DNA from: a virus
Direction: 5' to 3' (one strand)
IMG/VR virus record: IMGVR_UViG_3300029620_000021
DNA length: 36,199 nucleotides
Shown piece by piece: positions 1-36,199 of this stretch (position 1 is its first letter; each line of letters starts with the position of its first letter). The notes under the pieces are model-generated. The model was given only the letters and a program-made list of their open reading frames with translations, had not been told where the DNA came from and made no database searches. The position numbers were made by a program, and so were the translations under genes.

Positions 1-99
1 GACGCGGAAGCGGACGTCACGGGTCAAGGGTGATCGCCTCCTCTCGGTTCGTGTGCGAGATGGTGAAGGAATAGCGGCGCATGAACTCGTCGCAGTTGC
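1..99. repeat. Terminal direct repeat, copy 1 (circularisation overlap)
   Basis: By-eye comparison shows identity to 36101-36199. It lies inside coding sequence, at the overlap of the Dit-like stop and the Tal-like start. Confidence 0.95.
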
Positions 100-14116: not shown

Positions 14117-14938
14117 TTATTTCCCGAGGCTCGCAATGATGCCCTTTTCACGTTCAGACAGCTTCCAGACGTGCGCGGCGGCTTTCTCGGCTGCGGCTTT
14201 CTCGGCTGCGGCTTTCTCGGCTGCGGCTTTCTCGGCGGCAGCTCGGTTTGACAGCAGCAGCCCGTCGCCAAATATTCTCTTTCCCGTTTTGCGCTGACTA
14301 TCCAGTTTGGTAACGTACGTGCAGTCCTCGCGTTTAACCGCGAACTCTATACCGTAGTGCGCATATTTCTGCAGCATGGCTGCCGTCAGCACATGGTCCG
14401 GATATGTATATTTCGGCAACTCCTGTTTCGTCTGCGACTTTATCTGCCGCATCGCCCGCTCGACTGCCCTTCTGAGTGATGGGGCGCTCTGCGCGATGTT
14501 TCCTCCGAAACTTGTTACAAACGCCGTGCGAACGACTGCGCCATTTTCATACGTGATGTCTGCATCGCAAATGATATGATTCATCCTCAGCACAACTGAT
14601 CGGCCGGAGAGCGCCGTGAGCGATGGCGCAAAAAGAAAGAACGCAATCCCTCTGTCTATGTAGAATTCGCAGATTTTTGAAAGAATCGAAAAAGGCGGGT
14701 TGTCCAGCACGACGCAGCCGTCCGGATAGTCAAAACGCTCATAGTCCCCACCCGGATAGAATGGCCGCACGATGCAGGCCGGGTCAATCCCATATTCACT
14801 GCACGCCCAATCCCGGATCGCATCATAAACAAGCGGTGGCGTGTAGCAGTCGTCCGTTGTCTTTTTTTGTTTGAATTTCTCCGTGAACGCATCGTATTCC
14901 GGGTTGTCGTCGAATAAGCATCCCTGTTCCCATTGCAT
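14117..14938 (-). CDS. Orphan DNA N6-adenine methyltransferase-like protein with C-terminal (AAEKA)n repeat
   Basis: 273 aa from the ATG at 14938 (RBS AAAGGAGGG). It has a DNPPF motif (motif IV type D/N-PP-F/Y) and a CYTPP segment. No cognate endonuclease is nearby. Confidence 0.65.
   Translation of the reverse strand: MQWEQGCLFDDNPEYDAFTEKFKQKKTTDDCYTPPLVYDAIRDWACSEYGIDPACIVRPFYPGGDYERFDYPDGCVVLDNPPFSILSKICEFYIDRGIAFFLFAPSLTALSGRSVVLRMNHIICDADITYENGAVVRTAFVTSFGGNIAQSAPSLRRAVERAMRQIKSQTKQELPKYTYPDHVLTAAMLQKYAHYGIEFAVKREDCTYVTKLDSQRKTGKRIFGDGLLLSNRAAAEKAAAEKAAAEKAAAEKAAAHVWKLSEREKGIIASLGK
14178..14237. repeat. Perfect/near-perfect 15-nt tandem repeat x4 (GCGGCTTTCTCGGCT) inside the methyltransferase gene
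   Basis: Read directly from the sequence. It encodes AAEKA x4 in frame on the minus strand. Confidence 0.95.
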
Positions 14939-22874: not shown

Positions 22875-23366
22875 ATGTACTGTAACAAATGTGGCAAGGA
22901 GATCGACGATGAGGCTCTGATCTGCCCGTACTGCGGCTGCGGGACCGTGAATTACATCCGCGACCAGGCGAAGGCCGAGTCCCGCGCGCGGGAGCCCCGC
23001 CAGCCCGCGCAGAAGAAGCGCTCGAGTGCGCTGCTGCTCTGTATCTTCCTCGGCGGCTTCGGTGCACATCGTTTTTATGTCGGCAAGATCTGGACGGGGC
23101 TTCTTTGGCTCTTTACGCTCGGCTTTTGGGGCATTGGCACGCTGGTTGATTTTTGCCGGATCTATGATAACAAGTTTACAGACGACGCCGGGCGCCCGCT
23201 CTACGATGAGTACACGGATGGCATGACGCCTGAGGAATACGAGTCCGCCGTCGCTGGTCCCCGCAGAGTCCGGAAAGTTATCATCGTCATTGCCCTTGCG
23301 CTTTGTGCCGGCTGCTTCCTGTTCGTCCGCGTCATCCCCAGCCTCATGTACGCGCTTGGTTTTTGA
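22875..23366 (+). CDS. Zn-ribbon + TM2-domain membrane protein
   Basis: 163 aa. Contains CNKCG...CPYCG, then LLLCIFLGGFGAHRFYVGKIWTGLLWLFTLGFWGIGTLVD (TM2 signature). Confidence 0.8.
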   Translation: MYCNKCGKEIDDEALICPYCGCGTVNYIRDQAKAESRAREPRQPAQKKRSSALLLCIFLGGFGAHRFYVGKIWTGLLWLFTLGFWGIGTLVDFCRIYDNKFTDDAGRPLYDEYTDGMTPEEYESAVAGPRRVRKVIIVIALALCAGCFLFVRVIPSLMYALGF

Positions 23367-23532: not shown

Positions 23533-23943
23533 TTGAAGGAAAAATTATCTGATTTGTGCCGTGAGCAGAAGCAGACGGTCACTCCGCACAAAACAAATCA
23601 GGACGTTGCCGAAAACACCGACCTTTCCGTCGGCACCGTCTCCCAGTTCTTTCGCGGCGACATCAAAAATCCGTCTGTTTACACGGTCGGCCCGATCTGC
23701 CGGGAGATGGGCGTTTCTATGGACGATTATTTCGGCATCCCGCATGACGAGCCTGCCGAGCCTTCCGATGCTGAAAAGCTCCGCGCCGAGAACGCGGCCC
23801 TTCGTGCGCAGCTTGCCCAGCAGCAGAAGTCCCTGCGCATGCACCGGCTTGTGACGCTCATCCTCTTGGGCATTCTTTCGCTGTGTGCCCTCGCGCTTGT
23901 GGCCGACGTACTCAGCCCATCGATCGGCTGGTTCCGCGCATAA
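23533..23943 (+). CDS. Membrane-anchored XRE-family HTH protein
   Basis: 136 aa, TTG start. HTH-like NQDVAENTDLSVGTVSQFFRGDIKNPS, a coiled segment, then a C-terminal TM (LVTLILLGILSLCALALVADVL). Confidence 0.6.
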   Translation: MKEKLSDLCREQKQTVTPHKTNQDVAENTDLSVGTVSQFFRGDIKNPSVYTVGPICREMGVSMDDYFGIPHDEPAEPSDAEKLRAENAALRAQLAQQQKSLRMHRLVTLILLGILSLCALALVADVLSPSIGWFRA

Positions 23944-24014
23944 ATCAAACCGCCCCGGCCCAGCGCCGGAGCGGTATCCGTATAACCTTTTGCCCTTGTG
24001 GTGAGAATCTGCTT

Positions 24015-25604
24015 ATGAAATTTACATCTACCTGGAAAATCGCTGACCCGCTCTCGCAGTACATCATTTACCTGCGCAAGTCCCGGAAGGACATGGAGGC
24101 CGAAGCTCTCGGCCAGACCGACACGCTCAATCGGCACCGGGCCGCGCTTTTGTCGCTGTCCGAAAGCCGCGGGCTGAACGTCGTGGAGATCTGCGAGGAG
24201 GTCGTGACCGGTGACTCCATCGCCGTCCGGCCGGAGGTGCAGAAGGTCCTGCAGCTCGTCGAGACCGGGAACTATGCGGGCGTCATCGTCATGGAAGTCG
24301 AGCGTCTGGCGCGCGGCGACACCATCGACCAGGGCATTATTGCCCAGACCTTCAAGTATTCCAACACGAAGATCATCACACCGAACAAGATCTATGATCC
24401 AAACAACGAGATGGACGAGGAATACTTTGAGTTCGGCCTCTTTATGTCCCGGCGCGAGTACAACACCATCAAGCGCCGCCTGTCCCGAGGCAAGGAGGCG
24501 TCTCTGCGCGAGGGCAAATGGATCTCCGGCAAGACGCCCTTCGGCTGGCTGCGCGAGAAGCTGCCGAACGACAAGGGCTATAAGCTCGTCCCGCACCCGG
24601 AGCAGGCCCCCATCCTGCAGCAGATCTACAACTGGTACACCGGCGAGGGCTGCGCGCGCATCGGCGCGAAGGCGATTTCCACTCGGCTGAACAGCCTCGG
24701 TGTCCCGACCAACTCCGGCAGCCTCTGGCGCGCGGACTCTGTGCTGGATATCCTGCGCAATCCGGCAAATGCTGGCTGGATCAAGTCCGGCGGGCGGCCA
24801 GAGACGAAGCGCATTGTCGACGGCGCTGTCGTCGTCAGTCGCCCCCGCACCCGGCAGGAGGATTTGAAGCTTTATAAAGGGCTGCACGACGGCCTGATCT
24901 CGCAGGAGCAGTACGACAAGGCCGTTGCTCTGAGCTATTCCAGCGCCAGCCCGCGCGGCAAGGGCGCATGGGGAACCGTGACAAGCCTCGCCGGGCTCGT
25001 CCGCTGCGACCAGTGCGGCCGCGTGATGGTGCGCCGCCCGTCGTCCGGCAACCGCCGCGATACGCTCCTTTGTCCCTCCTACGGCTGCACGACCGTCAGC
25101 GCGTGGTATGATGATGTGGAGGACGCCGTGCTGGATGCCCTGCGTGGCTGGCTGCGCGAGCTGGAGCTCGGTGAGGCCGCTGCGCCAGATGACACGCCCA
25201 TGCGCACCGCGCTCGAGTCCTCGATCGCCGCCGACCGCAAGCAGCTTGCCAAGCTGGAGGCGCAGGAGGCCCGCGCGTATGAGCTGGTCGAGACCGGTGT
25301 CTATACACCGGAGATCTTCCTGCAGCGCTCGCAGGCGCTCGCCGCCGACAAGCAGGTCATCGTCGACCGCATCGAGGCAAGCCAGACCACGATCACCGAG
25401 CTGGCCCGTGCTAGACAGGCCCGCGCCCGTCTGGCCCCCGCCGTCCGCCGCGTCCTCGAGACCTACCCGCTCGCCGCATCCCCGCAGGAGAGAAACGCCC
25501 TCCTGAAAACTGTCCTGCAGAAGGTCCTCTACCATAAACAGACCAAATCCTACACCAAATCCGGCAGCGACATGCACGTCACCCTCTACCCCCTCGCGGA
25601 TTGA
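24015..25604 (+). CDS. int: Large serine recombinase (integrase)
   Basis: 529 aa from the ATG at 24015. Resolvase-type N-terminus (YIIYLRKSRKD...VVMEVERLARG), a recombinase domain, a Zn-ribbon (CDQCG...CPSYGC) and a coiled-coil C-terminus. Confidence 0.9.
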   Translation: MKFTSTWKIADPLSQYIIYLRKSRKDMEAEALGQTDTLNRHRAALLSLSESRGLNVVEICEEVVTGDSIAVRPEVQKVLQLVETGNYAGVIVMEVERLARGDTIDQGIIAQTFKYSNTKIITPNKIYDPNNEMDEEYFEFGLFMSRREYNTIKRRLSRGKEASLREGKWISGKTPFGWLREKLPNDKGYKLVPHPEQAPILQQIYNWYTGEGCARIGAKAISTRLNSLGVPTNSGSLWRADSVLDILRNPANAGWIKSGGRPETKRIVDGAVVVSRPRTRQEDLKLYKGLHDGLISQEQYDKAVALSYSSASPRGKGAWGTVTSLAGLVRCDQCGRVMVRRPSSGNRRDTLLCPSYGCTTVSAWYDDVEDAVLDALRGWLRELELGEAAAPDDTPMRTALESSIAADRKQLAKLEAQEARAYELVETGVYTPEIFLQRSQALAADKQVIVDRIEASQTTITELARARQARARLAPAVRRVLETYPLAASPQERNALLKTVLQKVLYHKQTKSYTKSGSDMHVTLYPLAD

Positions 25605-25699: not shown

Positions 25700-26167
25700 T
25701 TATTTTGCGATATGCTCATAATACGCCATGAGCTTCTGCTCCGGCCCCGGGCCGTCCTTATCGAGCAGGAACGCCTTTGCCAGAGCAGCGTAGAACTCCG
25801 GGCGGTTGAGGCCGAACTCTACGGCGACTGGGTAGTAGTCCGAGTACATCATGTTCATGGTTACGCCCCACGCCCAGCGCGGGACCACTGGTGCCTGAAT
25901 GCCCATGCTCTCGGCCACAGCCGTTGTCTGTTCCATCGTCCAATGCGGGCCTGCCGTGCCGTCGGCGTTTTGCATGTTGGCTGCCCACTGCATCGCCGTT
26001 TCGCGATCAAATGTGGCCGCCTCCGGCTCGTCGTGGTGCCCGTGCAGCTTTTCGAGCCTGCAGATCGTCTTTGCATACAGTCCGACTTCTTCCGCGCTGC
26101 CCAGCGTCACGGGTTTCTCCATGGCCTCGTGCAGCTTTGTGTAAAGCTTTTCGATATATTCTTTCAT
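25700..26167 (-). CDS. Hypothetical protein (accessory operon gene 3)
   Basis: 155 aa from the ATG at 26167 (RBS GGAGGC). I recognise no family. Confidence 0.65.
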   Translation of the reverse strand: MKEYIEKLYTKLHEAMEKPVTLGSAEEVGLYAKTICRLEKLHGHHDEPEAATFDRETAMQWAANMQNADGTAGPHWTMEQTTAVAESMGIQAPVVPRWAWGVTMNMMYSDYYPVAVEFGLNRPEFYAALAKAFLLDKDGPGPEQKLMAYYEHIAK

Positions 26168-26171
26168 CTCG

Positions 26172-26510
26172 TCATGCCTCCTGGATATACCGGTAGAGTT
26201 TATCGACGTCGTTCTGGTCAAATCGCATATCGCCCAGCAGCGGGACGGATACGGTCAGCTTGTTTTCAAAGCGCGGCCTGGCCGCGTTGTATAGCTTGTC
26301 GAGGTCGATGTTTCCGGTGTCGTCAAAGATCTGCATCATCTTGACCGCCGGATTCTCGCGCAGCGCAAGGATCTTCTCGCGGCTGCCCTCCATGATGAGC
26401 GCCAGCATGATCCCGGCCCCGATGCCCTTGCCACCCGGCAGGTGCGGGATGACCTCATTGTCCGCGTAGCGCATCGCGCCGCGCATGGCCTGATCTATCG
26501 TCACTGTCAT
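26172..26510 (-). CDS. Hypothetical protein (accessory operon gene 2)
   Basis: 112 aa with one hydrophobic segment (GKGIGAGIMLALIMEG). Confidence 0.65.
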   Translation of the reverse strand: MTVTIDQAMRGAMRYADNEVIPHLPGGKGIGAGIMLALIMEGSREKILALRENPAVKMMQIFDDTGNIDLDKLYNAARPRFENKLTVSVPLLGDMRFDQNDVDKLYRYIQEA

Positions 26511-26559
26511 TGCAGATTTCCTCCTTTAAGGATGGGGCGGCTATTGCCGCCCCTTGCGT

Positions 26560-27192
26560 TTAGCCGTTGCAGCACCCGCACTTCGGGATCGGGTTGTAGA
26601 GCGACTGCGCTGTGGTCGCGGTGCCCGTGGTGACGTCGGCGACCTGCTTGGGATAAAAGGTCGCGTTGACGTAGGTGACGATGGCGTTGTCGCCGCAGCA
26701 GCGGCGTTCGGCCTCCATCTTGACCGCGCCAAGGGCTTCCTTGCGGACAGACTCGACGTCCTGCTTGACCAGCGCGAAGCTGTCCTCGGTGCGCTGGTTG
26801 TGGACGGCCTGCTTGCACAGCGCCTCACGGACGTCCTTGAGCTGCCCGTCGATATAACCGTACATCTCCAGCATCTTGCCGTCGTTGTACGTGTTGGCCT
26901 TGAGCAGCGCGATCTCGCTGTCCTTCGCGGCCAGCTTCTGCTCCCGGTCAAGATCGTAGCGCGTGACCGGCATGTTCTCGCTGCACGTCGGCTCCTGCTG
27001 CCGTGCGGCGAGCATGGCGGCGACCGTCATGGCAGGCGTGACCGCCGCAGCGATGTCAGCGGCTTCCGATCTCTTGTTCTGGTTGAGGCCGCCCAGCAGA
27101 TTGCCGAGCCCGCCGTTTGCCAGACCCAGCGCGGCGCCGCCGATGCCGAAGCCCAGCGCAGTCCCCGCGAGTCCCTTGCTTGCGTATTCCAT
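26560..27192 (-). CDS. Glycine-zipper membrane protein with coiled coil and Cys-rich C-terminus (accessory operon gene 1)
   Basis: 210 aa from the ATG at 27192 (RBS CCGGAGGA). It has an N-terminal GxxxG-rich stretch GLAGTALGFGIGGAALGLANGGLGNLLGGL, a central heptad-like region, and a C-terminus with RRCCG...KCGCCNG. Confidence 0.65.
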   Translation of the reverse strand: MEYASKGLAGTALGFGIGGAALGLANGGLGNLLGGLNQNKRSEAADIAAAVTPAMTVAAMLAARQQEPTCSENMPVTRYDLDREQKLAAKDSEIALLKANTYNDGKMLEMYGYIDGQLKDVREALCKQAVHNQRTEDSFALVKQDVESVRKEALGAVKMEAERRCCGDNAIVTYVNATFYPKQVADVTTGTATTAQSLYNPIPKCGCCNG

Positions 27193-27265
27193 AAAAAATC
27201 CTCCGGTAAAAGTAGTAAGCTGGCCAGCTCCTACTCTCATTCTGCCGCTCCCCCGGTTTTTATGG

Positions 27266-27305
27266 GGGACATTTCCGGGACATCTGTGTACCATTTGTGG
27301 GACAT
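27266..27305. promoter_or_regulatory. Three helically phased GGGACAT direct repeats in the divergent control region
   Basis: GGGACAT occurs at 27266, 27277 and 27299, giving spacings of 11 and 22 nt. The repeats lie between the accessory operon start and the toxI promoter. Confidence 0.4.
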
Positions 27306-27338
27306 GCTTTCCTCTTAAAAATTTTCCCAGTACCCCTC

Positions 27339-27368
27339 TTGACTTCTACACTTTTTTGAGTTTATACT
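27339..27368 (+). promoter_or_regulatory. Promoter of the type III TA locus (TTGACT-18 nt-TATACT)
   Basis: -35 at 27339-27344 and -10 at 27363-27368. Confidence 0.6.
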
Positions 27369-27483
27369 AGGGGTGCGGAGAGATCCGCGAAAGAATCCTG
27401 AAATCTGGCACCGCACGATCCGCGGCACAACCATTTCAGGAATCTACAGAGATTGAACGTCGCCGTTCATCATCTGCCCATGA

Positions 27484-27594
27484 AAGCGGAGATCCCTTGC
27501 CGTTAAATAGGGAGCTAAAAAAGCGGAAATCCCTTGCCGTTAAGTAGGGAGCCAAAAAAGCGGAAATCCCTTGCCGTTAAGTAGGGGCTTAAAA
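27484..27594 (+). ncRNA. toxI: ToxI-like antitoxin RNA: three tandem 37-nt repeats
   Basis: R1 27484-27520, R2 27521-27557 and R3 27558-27594 are head-to-tail with no spacers. Consensus is AAGCGGAAATCCCTTGCCGTTAAGTAGGGAGCCAAAA, and copies differ at 3-4 positions. They lie between a promoter and a terminator, immediately upstream of a ToxN-family ORF. Confidence 0.8.
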
Positions 27595-27611
27595 AATCAT
27601 GGGCAACTAAA

Positions 27612-27640
27612 AGCGAGACTTCTGCAGTCTCGCTTTTTCT
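27612..27640 (+). terminator. Intrinsic terminator between the repeat array and toxN
   Basis: 9-bp stem AGCGAGACT / AGTCTCGCT, loop TCTGC, then TTTTT. Confidence 0.8.
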
Positions 27641-27659
27641 TTCCCGGAAAGGTCGAATC

Positions 27660-28169
27660 TTGGAGAATCTTTTTATCTGCCACATCAGTGAGCGCTATAT
27701 TTCCTTCCTCCATTCCCGTGACTTCCGTGTCCCGTTCAACAAGGGCCAGCGTCGCCCCTATGTCGGCGTTGTTCTCACTGTCGGAAGCTTCCGCTATTTC
27801 GTCCCCATGGAATCCCCGAAGCCAAACCATGCCAATCTAAAGCCCGGCAAGCACATTCTGAAGCTTGACGGTGGCCGCCTCGGTCTTCTCGGCTTCAACA
27901 ACATGGTCCCTGTCCCTGATTCTGCGATCCTTGAATACGACATTTCCGCAGAGCCGGATGTGAAGTATCGCAACCTGCTCCTGAACCAGATCGAGCATTG
28001 CAACCGTCAGAAGCTTGCCATTCTGGATCATGCCAATCGTACATACTACGATGTCGTCAATGGAAAGAGCAGCTTCATCTGTAAGATCTCCTGCGACTTC
28101 CGCGCGCTGGAGCGCGCATGCAGATCGTATAACCCGAACTATCGTCCGAAAGCCAATCCCGGAACATAG
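27660..28169 (+). CDS. toxN: Type III toxin, ToxN/AbiQ-family endoribonuclease
   Basis: 169 aa, TTG start 7 nt after GGAAAGG. The N-terminus (M)ENLFICHISERYISFLHSRDFRVPFNKGQRRPYVGVVLTVGSFRYFVPMESPKPNH fits the ToxN/AbiQ pattern as I recall it. The genomic architecture matches. Confidence 0.8.
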   Translation: MENLFICHISERYISFLHSRDFRVPFNKGQRRPYVGVVLTVGSFRYFVPMESPKPNHANLKPGKHILKLDGGRLGLLGFNNMVPVPDSAILEYDISAEPDVKYRNLLLNQIEHCNRQKLAILDHANRTYYDVVNGKSSFICKISCDFRALERACRSYNPNYRPKANPGT

Positions 28170-28174
28170 AAAAA

Positions 28175-28200
28175 GCGCCATGAGCCGTTGCTCATGGCGC
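28175..28200. terminator. Bidirectional terminator between toxN and the convergent HTH/lysis genes
   Basis: 11-bp stem GCGCCATGAGC / GCTCATGGCGC with loop CGTT. It is flanked by an A-run upstream and a T-rich tract downstream. Confidence 0.75.
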
Positions 28201-28359
28201 TTTCTCTTTGTCCGTTTTCCCTGTCAGACGGCGGGCGATATTGTAGATGTGCGGCAGGCGGCGGGAGATGGTTTTGCGGTCGACGCCGATCTCGGCGGCG
28301 GCGTCCATCTGCGGGAGCCTGCGCACGATATAAAGTCTCACGATCTGCTGATCGATCAC
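28192..28359 (-). CDS. Sigma-70 region 4-like HTH protein; minimal 55-aa version, with a protein-like open frame further upstream that lacks ATG/GTG/TTG
   Basis: The frame reads ...ITARLALPKELEHLTRSDWERVTDEGLLDVIDQQIVRLYIVRRLPQMDAAAEIGVDRKTISRRLPHIYNIARRLTGKTDKEKAP*. The only canonical starts are TTG/GTG at LDV(28359). The gene may be truncated or use a non-canonical start. Confidence 0.35.
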   Translation of the reverse strand: MIDQQIVRLYIVRRLPQMDAAAEIGVDRKTISRRLPHIYNIARRLTGKTDKEKAP

Positions 28360-28484
28360 GTCCAAAAGTCCCTCGTCAGTGACGCGCTCCCAGTCGCTGC
28401 GCGTGAGGTGTTCCAGCTCCTTCGGCAGAGCCAGCCGCGCAGTTATGCTTTCGTCACTCCCTTCGGCCCGCCGCCGGGCGGGGC

Positions 28485-29195
28485 TTACTTTTCCTTGTGC
28501 TTCAGCACAGCGATATTGCCCTTGTTGCTCACTTCGAGATCCAGCGCGGCGGCGATATCGCGCACCTTGACGTAGTTCGTGCCGTCTTTCAGGATGCGTT
28601 CAACGGCGACTTCTTTACCGTCCACGATGATCTTGCTCTTTTCGACCACTTCTTTTTCCCCCTCTCCGTTCTTTCCATCTTCGAGTGCCATGACCGTATG
28701 GCCCTCGCTTACCAGCACGTCCCCGCGCAGGAGATTGGCGTCCGTCTTCAGATATTTGCTACCAATCAACAATTTAAAATCTCCCGTTGCGGGCCAATCG
28801 TGCAGCATGCAGTATGTCGTGCAGCTGTTGCCCTGCCGGCGGTAGAGCGCTTCGACCGACGCGCAGCCTGCAGCCACGGCGCAGAGCGTCATGAGGCCGG
28901 AGCAGTCCGTCTCCACGGGCTTTGTGATCTTGCTCACGTCCCACTGTACGGCTCTGGCGGCCTCATACGCCGTGTTCCGGTCGCTCATGTCGTAACCGAT
29001 ATTCCGGTTTTTAATCGCTGCCTCGCACGTCTGCGCGGCCCTCTCGGCCTTTTTGCGGCTCTTGTAGCGCAGGACGCCGATCCAACGCCCGTTGTACCAG
29101 CGCGAGATATTCAGTTCCCTCCCGGTCTGGTTGCCGGGCTGCTGGTTCCAACCGCCGGTCTCGCCGAGGCTGGCCTGTCCGATCTTGATGCTCAT
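28485..29195 (-). CDS. Endolysin: NlpC/P60-like cysteine peptidase + C-terminal Cu-amine-oxidase-N-like wall-binding domain
   Basis: 236 aa. It has a TDCSGLM nucleophile-type motif and a C-terminus VDGKEVAVERILKDGTNYVKVRDIAAALDLEV. It overlaps the holin stop. Confidence 0.75.
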   Translation of the reverse strand: MSIKIGQASLGETGGWNQQPGNQTGRELNISRWYNGRWIGVLRYKSRKKAERAAQTCEAAIKNRNIGYDMSDRNTAYEAARAVQWDVSKITKPVETDCSGLMTLCAVAAGCASVEALYRRQGNSCTTYCMLHDWPATGDFKLLIGSKYLKTDANLLRGDVLVSEGHTVMALEDGKNGEGEKEVVEKSKIIVDGKEVAVERILKDGTNYVKVRDIAAALDLEVSNKGNIAVLKHKEK

Positions 29196-35081: not shown

Positions 35082-36127
35082 TATGCGATCACCGTCCTTT
35101 TCGCAGAGTGGGTCATGAGACTGCCGGGCTGCATGGTGACAGACCAGCCGGTCTCGAGATAGATGCCGCCGATCTCGTCATGCGTCAGGGCGAGGATGTC
35201 GCCGACGCCGTGGCCCGGCTCGGCCAGCGTATAAAATGTGATCGTGCGCGTGGCCAGCAGCGATTCGTTGCGGCGCTTGTTGGCGTAGGCCTGCAGATCC
35301 TCCTGCGAGGCGATGTTGTCCACCCGCTCGACGGAGGTGATGCGCATGCCGCGCTTGAAGGTGGATTTTTTGGATGCCGGATTGTCGTTGACGGCGGTCG
35401 CCACCATTGCTGCGTCCATATCCGGGTTGTTGCAGGTCACGACAAAAACGTTCGGTGCGTCAAAGATGTCTGTCTCGTCGGACCAGTCCTGCCCGGGGTG
35501 CTTTTCCGGGAGGAACAGGTCCGTCGTGCCGTAGCGCCAGTCGATGATGGCGGCGGATGGCTCCTGGTACGGCTCGAGACGGCAGACGCCGTCGGCGTCG
35601 AACCAGAGGTTCTCATAGTTGATCTCGGAGAGCAGGGCGTTGACGATCGTCAGGTAGCTCGTGCCGATCGGCCAATCCTCGCGGTCTGTGGCGAGGACTG
35701 CGTCGTTCGGCGCCGCGGTCACCAGCGTGATGCCGCAGGCGGTCAGGAGCTTTCGGATCTCCGTGAGGTAGGACGCTCCGGCCGCAAGATGCAGGAGCGT
35801 CTCTGTTTTTTGCGTGTACACCCGCCAGCAGCGGTCGTAAGCCTCGATCTCGACGCGCGTGCCGGAGCTGCTGCCCTTGTTGCTGACGGTCGCGGCCTGA
35901 TAGATGCCGAGCGATGTTTCGACGCCGTTGATGCTGATCCACGGGCGCAGCTCGTCGGACTCCAGCTCCGCGAGATCGTTTGGCAGGAAGCTGCCCTTGA
36001 AGGAGCCGTGCAGGGTGGCTGTCCGGTCGCACATGATCTGCGGGGCGCTGCCGGTGTCCCATTGGAGGTGGGTGATGGGCGCGCCGTTTCTGAGCACGTC
36101 GACGCGGAAGCGGACGTCACGGGTCAA
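35081..36127 (-). CDS. Tail-associated (Tal / baseplate hub N-terminal domain) protein
   Basis: 348 aa. Its start lies in the terminal duplicate (equivalent to nt 27) and overlaps the Dit-like stop by 11 nt once the contig is circularised. Position directly after Dit supports the call. Confidence 0.6.
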   Translation of the reverse strand: MTRDVRFRVDVLRNGAPITHLQWDTGSAPQIMCDRTATLHGSFKGSFLPNDLAELESDELRPWISINGVETSLGIYQAATVSNKGSSSGTRVEIEAYDRCWRVYTQKTETLLHLAAGASYLTEIRKLLTACGITLVTAAPNDAVLATDREDWPIGTSYLTIVNALLSEINYENLWFDADGVCRLEPYQEPSAAIIDWRYGTTDLFLPEKHPGQDWSDETDIFDAPNVFVVTCNNPDMDAAMVATAVNDNPASKKSTFKRGMRITSVERVDNIASQEDLQAYANKRRNESLLATRTITFYTLAEPGHGVGDILALTHDEIGGIYLETGWSVTMQPGSLMTHSAKRTVIA

Positions 36128-36199
36128 GGGTGATCGCCTCCTCTCGGTTCGTGTGCGAGATGGTGAAGGAATAGCGGCGCATGAACTCGTCGCAGTTGC
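36101..36199. repeat. Terminal direct repeat, copy 2 (circularisation overlap)
   Basis: Identical to nt 1-99. Confidence 0.95.

Follow-up and report, generated by a model that had tools for sequence, protein, structure and literature searches.

A type III toxin–antitoxin (TA) locus consists, by its published definition, of a promoter, repeats, a terminator and a toxin gene (PMC5086642). The mechanism of such systems is well established, although nearly all work on them has concerned plasmid and chromosomal loci. The closest described systems are ToxIN_Bt of the B. thuringiensis plasmid pAW63 (structure 4ATO), with a short array of 2.9 units of 34 nt (PMC5086642); ToxIN_Pa of P. atrosepticum (pECA1039; 2XD0/2XDD) and ToxIN_Ec (7D8O), which are proteobacterial, plasmid-borne or chromosomal, have 5.5 and 3–5.6 repeats of 36 nt, respectively, and cleave AA^AU or GAAAU; and AbiQ/antiQ of L. 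lactis pSRQ900 (4GLK), which is plasmid-borne, has 2.8 units of 35 nt, is cleaved in A-runs and has a proven role in abortive infection. ToxN_Bt cleaves A^AAAA and AbiQ A^AAA, and read-through of the ToxIN_Pa terminator is about 10% (PMC7781912). Here, a toxIN locus carried by a phage was analysed in the viral record IMGVR_UViG_3300029620_000021, of which the whole 36,199-nt stretch is referred to as the window; positions 27100–28500 were read closely, and promoters were scanned for over 26900–28600. An original prediction, made from the DNA letters without database searches, had proposed a locus of ToxIN/AbiQ architecture, and the layout found matches the published definition: the module (27339–28211, plus strand) comprises a promoter, a structured leader, three 37-nt units, a terminator, a ribosome-binding site (RBS), a 169-aa open reading frame (ORF) and a bidirectional terminator. 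The locus is most probably a functional ToxIN-family type III TA cassette, carried as a self-contained ‘moron’ in a variable slot of a temperate siphovirus of gut Oscillospiraceae/Clostridia.

The 169-aa ORF (toxN, 27660–28169, plus strand), in which the segments YISFL, RPYVGVV and YFVPMESPKP had been singled out and are all present, is unambiguously a ToxN/AbiQ-family protein and a predicted endoribonuclease. Comparison with the PF13958 profile and with ToxN, AbiQ and CptN structures had been proposed as checks, and both upheld the assignment. The ORF matched PF13958 (ToxN_toxin) over its full length at E = 1.2e-44 (score 152.7 bits, cutoff 25; profile positions 3–159 of 159), no Pfam family other than this matched it at E ≤ 1, and the PADLOC AbiQ model matched at 4.7e-40; among the NCBIfam models, none matching the window ToxN was found. 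In a sequence search of the PDB, B. thuringiensis ToxN 4ATO was the best match (9e-23), and E. coli ToxN 7D8O, AbiQ 4GLK and P. atrosepticum ToxN 2XD0 matched at about 1e-11. An AlphaFold2 model built on 30 homologues had a predicted local distance difference test score of 92.6, and Foldseek searches with this model returned 4ATO, 2XD0, 7D8O and 4GLK as the top four PDB entries, with template modelling (TM) scores of 0.77–0.82 (0.81 for 4ATO, the best structural match, and 0.80 for 4GLK). The modelled ORF is thus predicted to have the ToxN/AbiQ fold, in which helices are added to a MazF/Kid-like core. The CptN structure 4RMO was a far weaker match to the model (E = 1e-2, TM 0.52); CptIN or TenpIN membership was rejected on this score and on PF13958 being the only family at E ≤ 1.

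The protein is nevertheless distant from each of the characterised toxins. Identity to ToxN_Bt was 29% over the structural alignment, to the ToxIN_Pa and ToxIN_Ec toxins 24–25%, with which the Pfam family, the fold and the catalytic Ser/Lys are shared, and to AbiQ, which shares the Firmicutes host, 23%. In E. coli ToxN, the active site is formed by Lys33 (or Arg), Thr52, Ser53 and Lys55, and the RNA is held by Tyr110 and Gln117 (PMC8860590); the aligned window residues are R32, E51, S52, K54, Y103 and Q110, all invariant or nearly so among the 30 homologues, in which 46 columns, including the catalytic Ser, Lys and Arg, were invariant. Codon 51 (27810–27812) thus encodes Glu (PMES) where ToxN_Pa, ToxN_Ec and ToxN_Bt have the active-site Thr (PLTS). 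This Glu was found in 30 of 30 homologues and is for that reason regarded as a feature of the lineage and not a lesion; AbiQ has Leu (PLLS) at the equivalent position, so the active-site Thr is neither universal nor essential. The start codon is TTG in the window and in the relative L113, and ATG at the same position in the other aligned relatives; across 76 distinct loci, ATG was found in 55, TTG in 13 and GTG in 5.

Upstream of toxN, the putative antitoxin RNA gene toxI (27483–27596, plus strand) consists of units at 27483–27519, 27520–27556 and 27557–27593 followed by AAA, with AAAAAA at the junctions. Tandem Repeats Finder reported it with a period of 37, 3.1 copies and 92% matches, as the top-scoring tandem repeat of the window. 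A covariance model built from 136 related units matched exactly three units at about 50 bits each (E~1e-12), and nothing else in the window was significant. Three head-to-tail 37-nt repeats with A-rich junctions had been described in the original prediction and are confirmed by both methods, but its coordinates (27484–27594) are one base off register. It had also been remarked that the repeat was not recognised as one from ToxI, antiQ, CptI or TenpI; in agreement, an Rfam search of 27000–28400 at E ≤ 10 returned no type III antitoxin family, but only chance matches on the terminators, and the repeat belongs to a putative RNA family not yet curated in Rfam. Relatives were collected from 763 proteins matching at E ≤ 1e-5, for which 160 loci were fetched (80 from genomes, nearly all metagenome-assembled genomes of gut or rumen Clostridia/Oscillospiraceae, and 80 from IMG/VR viral contigs). 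Repeats of 36–37 nt lie upstream of ToxN homologues in more than 130 of the fetched loci, and in nearly all of those at 48% ToxN identity or more they are present in 2–3.3 copies, 39–78 nt before the toxN start. The window unit is one nucleotide longer than the longest of three characterised examples (PMC5086642), and units are 36–37 nt throughout the subfamily.

The fold of the unit was examined with 136 distinct aligned units, as a 5-bp hairpin the loop of which pairs with the 5′ GCGG, against 500 column shuffles and against slid pairing partners. Hairpin and pseudoknot together were paired in 90.9% of cells, compared with 74.8% in column shuffles and 40–50% with slid partners, and the covariation score was 0.487, compared with 0.177 after shuffling (0 of 500 as high) and 0.05–0.11 for slid partners. 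Compensatory changes occurred at every hairpin pair; the pseudoknot pair of columns 5 and 20 was CG in 107 units and AU in the other 29, and no unit left it unpaired. This in silico covariation supports folding of the toxI unit as a hairpin-type pseudoknot, base triplexes lying beyond the reach of the method. The fold class, the unit length and the A-rich junctions are as described for ToxI and antiQ (PMC5086642; PMC7781912); the pseudoknotted repeat RNA and the putatively attenuating terminator are shared with ToxIN_Pa and ToxIN_Ec, and the junctions fit the A^AAAA specificity of ToxIN_Bt (PMC7781912), which has the same promoter–repeats–terminator–toxin order. The sequence of the window repeat is unrelated to that of ToxIN_Bt at the level detectable with Rfam. 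In five low-GC Clostridia loci (L065, L068, L075, L076 and L079; ToxN about 39% identical), units such as CAAGAGGAAATCCCTAGCCTAATAAGTAGGGTAACGT keep the hairpin and pseudoknot pattern. Tandem Repeats Finder called no arrays in these five loci, and their arrays may be more divergent or otherwise organised.

The array is preceded by a predicted sigma-70-like promoter (−35 TTGACT, 27339–27344; 18-nt spacer; −10 TATACT, 27363–27368; 10 of 12 consensus matches), as originally proposed. It was the sole match of its kind in the scanned region, where 0.7 were expected by chance, its −35 and −10 positions are kept in the divergent alleles L113, L116, L117, L119, L145, L147 and L158, and a comparable promoter lies 5′ of the array in most of 93 distinct family loci. 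The consensus match and the conserved position are consistent with a single promoter upstream of the repeats serving both toxI and toxN. The leader that follows is about 108 nt, compared with about 45–70 nt in most loci, because of a hairpin insertion of about 52 nt at 27392–27445 (arms 27392–27404 and 27433–27445; found as inverted repeat I5 and by folding). The insertion is also present in L113 and in the orphan-array type L168 described below, and is missing from L116, L117, L119, L145, L147 and L158, the leaders of which are about 53–57 nt. Two further leader hairpins are conserved. The first, GCGGA-GAGA-UCCGC at 27375–27388, shows compensatory changes (GCAGA/TCTGC in L117, L119, L147 and L158; GCAGG/CCTGC in L145) and might stabilise the 5′ end. 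The second, at 27447–27476 with the inner stem UGAACG/CGUUCA, is found in every allele of the alignment, where changes such as CGAACA/UGUUCA are seen. The complete leader, insertion included, folds at z = −4.49; degenerate repeat units hidden within it were ruled out, as the covariance model matched none there. A possible helix bracketing the array was tentatively seen in the alignment (5′ arm GCCCAUG, 27476–27482; 3′ arm CAUGGGC, 27598–27604). It is 7 bp long in the window and 6–9 bp across the 37-nt sub-clade, in which L116 and L145 share one compensatory variant (GCUCGUG/CACGGGC); as a family-wide trait it was rejected, since the best 5′/3′ complementarity outside this sub-clade was at the level of shuffled sequence (median p ~0.33).

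Between toxI and toxN lies an intrinsic terminator (27609–27640; stem 27609–27620/27626–27637, then a T-run), which agrees with the stem and U-tract that had been predicted there. Its stem has eight G/C-rich pairs plus an A-U extension around a loop of 5, and folds at z = −3.4. Direct folding and an inverted-repeat search reported it; the consensus terminator scanner did not, because the A/T stem extension absorbed the T tail. Relatives carry compensatory stem variants (GCGGGAC/GUCCCGC and GCGAGGC/GCCUCGC), and in 59 of 76 distinct loci repeats and toxin are separated by a hairpin (6 bp or more) followed by T-rich sequence. By analogy with the family, the element would act as an attenuator of toxN transcription. 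An RBS, GGAAAGG (27646–27652), was read 7 nt before the start codon and is kept as G(A/G)AAGG in relatives. Promoter, both conserved leader hairpins, terminator and RBS are all retained, with compensatory changes, in alleles with ToxN at 60–70% identity, and in about 35 viral contigs the cassette is conserved at 98–100%. Beyond toxN, a bidirectional terminator (28164–28211, both strands; a 14-bp stem flanked by an A-run and a T-run) is common to toxN and the convergent minus-strand helix-turn-helix (HTH)/lysis transcription unit, and isolates the locus as had been proposed. This terminator belongs to the phage backbone, outside the inserted cassette, as it is also found in empty-slot relatives directly after GGGACATGCGGGC.

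The surroundings of the cassette were compared in 80 sister-phage loci (L161–L240), fetched with the neighbouring 244-aa gene as bait. The interval between a 57-aa HTH gene and the 244-aa gene forms a slot of widely variable length, which bears out the accessory slot of the original prediction: in sister phages it is empty, filled by other toxIN alleles or filled by unrelated cargo. Nine sister loci have an empty slot of 46–88 nt (eleven, if gaps of 46–165 nt are counted). In 18 loci a slot of about 900 nt contains toxIN, and in 22 a slot of about 760 nt contains a different two-ORF cargo, a ribbon-helix-helix (RHH)-like 81-aa ORF and a 128-aa ORF; slots of 1.2–2.3 kb hold several further cargos, including triple Zn-ribbon plus HTH proteins. 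Pfam searches of these other cargos produced no more than hints (RHH_10, BrnA, MqsA-like, DUF2283), all of them below the curated cutoffs, so the term ‘TA hotspot’ is not yet justified. Empty sites read ...GGGACATGCGGGC|ATAGAAAAAGCGCC... (the left side also as ...TTTGTGGGACATGCGGGC|ATAGAAAAAGCGCC). Window homology to them leaves at 27308 and returns at 28165 (CATAGAAAAAGCG), which delimits the inserted cassette to 27308–28164. Copies of a CATTTNNGGGACAT-like motif are present at 27270–27305, upstream of the 244-aa gene, and one more at 28154–28167, at the toxN 3′ end and the right junction; such copies might be operators or recombination sites marking the borders of the slot. The small HTH gene (28192–28365, minus strand) was rejected as part of the cassette, as it also adjoins empty slots.

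Alleles in the slot differ independently of their flanks. In L147 and L119, the flanking genes are 80–95% identical to the window, ToxN is only about 61% identical and the repeats differ accordingly; over a wider set (L147, L148, L158, L117–L120, L124, L127, L128 and L116), flanks of 65–95% identity accompany ToxN at 60–70% with matching divergent repeats. Conserved flanks around divergent toxins and repeats show that whole toxIN alleles have been exchanged at one site. Presence or absence of the cassette, together with allelic replacement, is the pattern that defence cargo should show. In many unrelated loci (L007, L015, L038, L045, L053, L133, L135–L137 and L140–L142), a serine-recombinase homologue lies 0.55–1.2 kb downstream of toxN, which points to the margins of integrative elements as a common location of toxIN.

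Some sister phages carry toxI arrays only. Of those among the 80 sister loci that have no toxN match, three (L237, L168 and L226) contained three-unit arrays according to the covariance model (R1), and toxN had been lost in two independent ways. Locus L237 (L281, IMGVR_UViG_3300029380_000012) keeps promoter, leader hairpins, three units, terminator and RBS, and its toxN is reduced to ATG-GAA-AAA-CTG-AGC-ATT-TGA (MEKLSI*), which runs straight into the backbone terminator. Loci L168 (L283, IMGVR_UViG_3300045988_055770) and L226 (L274, 3300029231_000021) keep promoter, leader, units and terminator of the window type, with about 1 kb of small ORFs on the opposite strand in place of toxN. When IMG/VR was scanned with a pattern for this unit type, 60 stretches were obtained, 57 of them assessable; toxN lay downstream in 50, five were orphan three-unit arrays (the three above, L254 and L265) and two were ambiguous single-unit matches. 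One of the five orphans is thus a deletion (L237) and four are replacements with opposite-strand cargo. In the four replacement-type contigs, the non-coding module from promoter to terminator was 98.4–100% identical to the window and the adjoining backbone genes 80–99%; the deletion-type contig has another allele, and no more than about 180 nt of its toxI module could be aligned, at 83%. These arrays recall the pseudo-ToxI of phage PhiTE in placing ToxI-type repeats on a phage without toxin. PhiTE, however, is a lytic myovirus with 1.5 imperfect repeats in its wild-type locus, expanded under selection, whereas the orphan arrays comprise three full units, retain promoter and terminator, and stem from a toxIN cassette that was resident. 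They could reflect either ordinary TA decay or selection for a ToxN-neutralising decoy. In this lineage toxIN is one allele in a hypervariable slot; that the orphan arrays are naturally occurring, phage-encoded anti-ToxN decoys in phage–phage conflict is put forward as a tentative and rather doubtful proposal. If it were true, temperate phages would compete with matched toxIN (exclusion) and toxI-only (counter-exclusion) cassettes, and toxI and toxN would co-diversify to escape cross-neutralisation.

A working scheme for the cassette was assembled from the toxin family, the gene order, the conservation and covariation of the RNA and its hairpins and the mobility of the cassette, with self-processing at A-runs, attenuation, an inactive cyclic complex and release of ToxN when the labile RNA is not replenished taken over from described family members. 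In a lysogen, the host-type promoter would transcribe the leader and the three 37-nt toxI units; most transcripts would end at the hairpin and T-run, and a minority would read through into toxN, the synthesis of which would be limited further by the weak TTG start. ToxN would cut the precursor within the AAAAAA junctions, each released unit would fold into the hairpin-type pseudoknot for which covariation was found, and folded units would hold ToxN in an inactive cyclic complex. A superinfecting phage that shut off host transcription, or otherwise depleted the labile RNA, would free ToxN to cleave A-rich RNA, and the superinfection would be aborted, protecting the lysogen population. Activation of ToxIN has been linked to the shutdown of host transcription by a phage (Guegler & Laub 2021, cited in PMC12283969). 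The original prediction had raised the puzzle of how the phage's own lytic programme avoids depleting toxI; this is probably not a paradox, since activation is tied to the invader's shutoff of host transcription and the cassette has its own host-type promoter, an answer that draws on the family. If the phage goes on relying on the host polymerase during its own lytic cycle, as assumed, toxI would still be made and that cycle would escape ToxN; no phage-encoded RNA polymerase was seen in the window as far as can be judged. The abortive-infection role is proposed by analogy with ToxIN_Pa and AbiQ, and the variable cargo slot is consistent with it.

Several points weigh against a functional defence cassette. 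Expression, processing, toxicity, neutralisation and phage resistance all rest on what is known of the family, in which abortive infection is only one role: ToxIN_Bt stabilises a plasmid (PMC4615649). The active-site Thr is Glu in the whole subfamily; the toxin is dispensable for the phage, because sister phages have lost toxN and kept toxI; and a trigger by host transcription shutoff is not inferable for gut phages. If the same module had been selected for prophage addiction, stabilising the phage by post-segregational killing, the promotion of plasmid retention by ToxIN_Bt (PMC4615649) and the location of the sole toxIN earlier reported on a phage, a plasmid prophage (PMC3401426), would be natural precedents, and the logic of stable toxin and labile RNA suits any replicon. 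Spontaneous loss should, however, be rare after integration by a large serine recombinase, which leaves little benefit, several phages that closely resemble this one in other respects have an empty slot, and replacement of toxIN alleles in one slot fits an arms race better than maintenance. Addiction as the selected role is therefore considered unlikely, and a defence (exclusion) role more likely, because the phage integrates and the slot behaves as exchangeable defence cargo.

The orphan arrays bear on the window cassette itself in so far as its useful part might be the toxI RNA, acting as a decoy that neutralises the cognate ToxN of resident prophages or hosts and so enables superinfection, with toxN secondary or being lost. 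Five of about 55 assessable three-unit arrays in viral contigs are without toxN (one MEKLSI*, four replaced), the toxI module of the four replacements is closer to the window (98.4–100%) than are its flanks (80–99%), and phage PhiTE escapes ToxIN by expanding pseudo-ToxI repeats or capturing toxI (PMC3475682). This reading of the window is nonetheless rather improbable: its toxN is intact with conserved catalytic residues, 50 of the 57 assessable arrays keep toxN, the high identity of the module could reflect recent exchange, and antitoxin-only remnants are the expected neutral path of TA decay, because losing the antitoxin first is lethal. That the cassette is an inactive relic, passively carried, could be argued from the non-canonical TTG start, the Glu in place of the active-site Thr and the 52-nt leader insertion that the other alleles lack, but each of the first two recurs in relatives (TTG in 13 of 76 distinct loci; E51 throughout the subfamily, hence a lineage feature), the ORF is full-length with the 46 invariant columns, catalytic Ser, Lys and Arg among them, and promoter, terminator and repeats are intact and 98–100% conserved in about 35 contigs. 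An inactive relic is accordingly very improbable. A functional ToxIN cassette with an exclusion role is the reading retained.

The module is textbook ToxIN, and its carriage by a phage has sparse precedent. C. botulinum phage D-1873 was reported in 2012 as the one phage-borne toxIN (PMC3401426), and a 2025 survey that described tenpIN in viruses stated that its own findings had been preceded by no further report of a type III system on a phage (PMC12283969). ToxN homologues are present in GenBank in D-1873, Fusobacterium phage phiFN37 (already annotated as a ToxN/AbiQ family toxin) and two Clostridioides plasmid-phages; these four are at most 38% identical to the window protein, none belongs to the 36-kb integrating siphovirus lineage, and three of them, D-1873 and the Clostridioides pair, are plasmid prophages with sizes from about 130 kb upwards. 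Phage ToxN homologues are already collected in a PHROG family, phrog_9764 (‘unknown function’). ToxIN_Bt, the nearest characterised system, differs from the window locus in its plasmid carrier, in the active-site Thr and in lacking the structured leader of about 108 nt; the locus likewise differs from ToxIN_Pa, ToxIN_Ec and AbiQ in being carried by a phage, and from AbiQ in having Glu for Leu. New here are the size of the gut-phage subfamily, the RNA family outside Rfam and the defined variable slot with natural toxI-only variants, of which the orphan toxI arrays are the most novel lead. With this locus, about 35 copies nearly identical to it and dozens of divergent alleles among IMG/VR contigs, canonical ToxIN is shown to be a common cargo of integrating phages of gut Clostridia. 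Together with the slot, the RNA family and the toxI-only variants, these loci offer a tractable natural system in which to ask whether prophage ToxIN mediates phage–phage exclusion and whether antitoxin-only phages are counter-defence, and the model of the 36–37-nt unit could be added to RNA family libraries for genome annotation.

The carrier is, as had been predicted, a complete temperate phage; it is of siphovirus type, comes from gut Oscillospiraceae/Clostridia and resembles human faecal phage contigs. Genes for the large terminase (TerL), portal, protease, major capsid, tape measure, tail, holin, an endolysin-like protein and a large serine integrase were found, and the first and last 99 nt of the window (1–99 and 36101–36199) are identical, from which a circular or terminally redundant whole-genome assembly was deduced. 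The cassette had been placed between integrase and lysis genes: the lysis side is convergent as stated, beginning with the HTH gene at 28192–28365, but the integrase is 2 kb away, with three unassigned minus-strand ORFs (25700–27294) between it and the cassette. The true start of the integrase ORF (23883–25604) probably lies downstream of 23883, because the resolvase domain begins only at residue 61. The called start is overlapped by a 136-aa ORF (23533–23943) with an HTH-like N-terminus and a hydrophobic C-terminus. The attP site, next to which the cassette had been placed, was not located by comparison with relatives in contigs of at least 60 kb: a homology break in L106 at window position 23363 leads into another phage-type module, with a Cro/C1-like HTH ORF, and not into host DNA, and another long contig is colinear across this position. 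A perfect tandem repeat with a 15-nt unit, GCGGCTTTCTCGGCT, lies among the early/replication genes at 14175–14243 (3.9 copies) and has the second-highest tandem score in the window.

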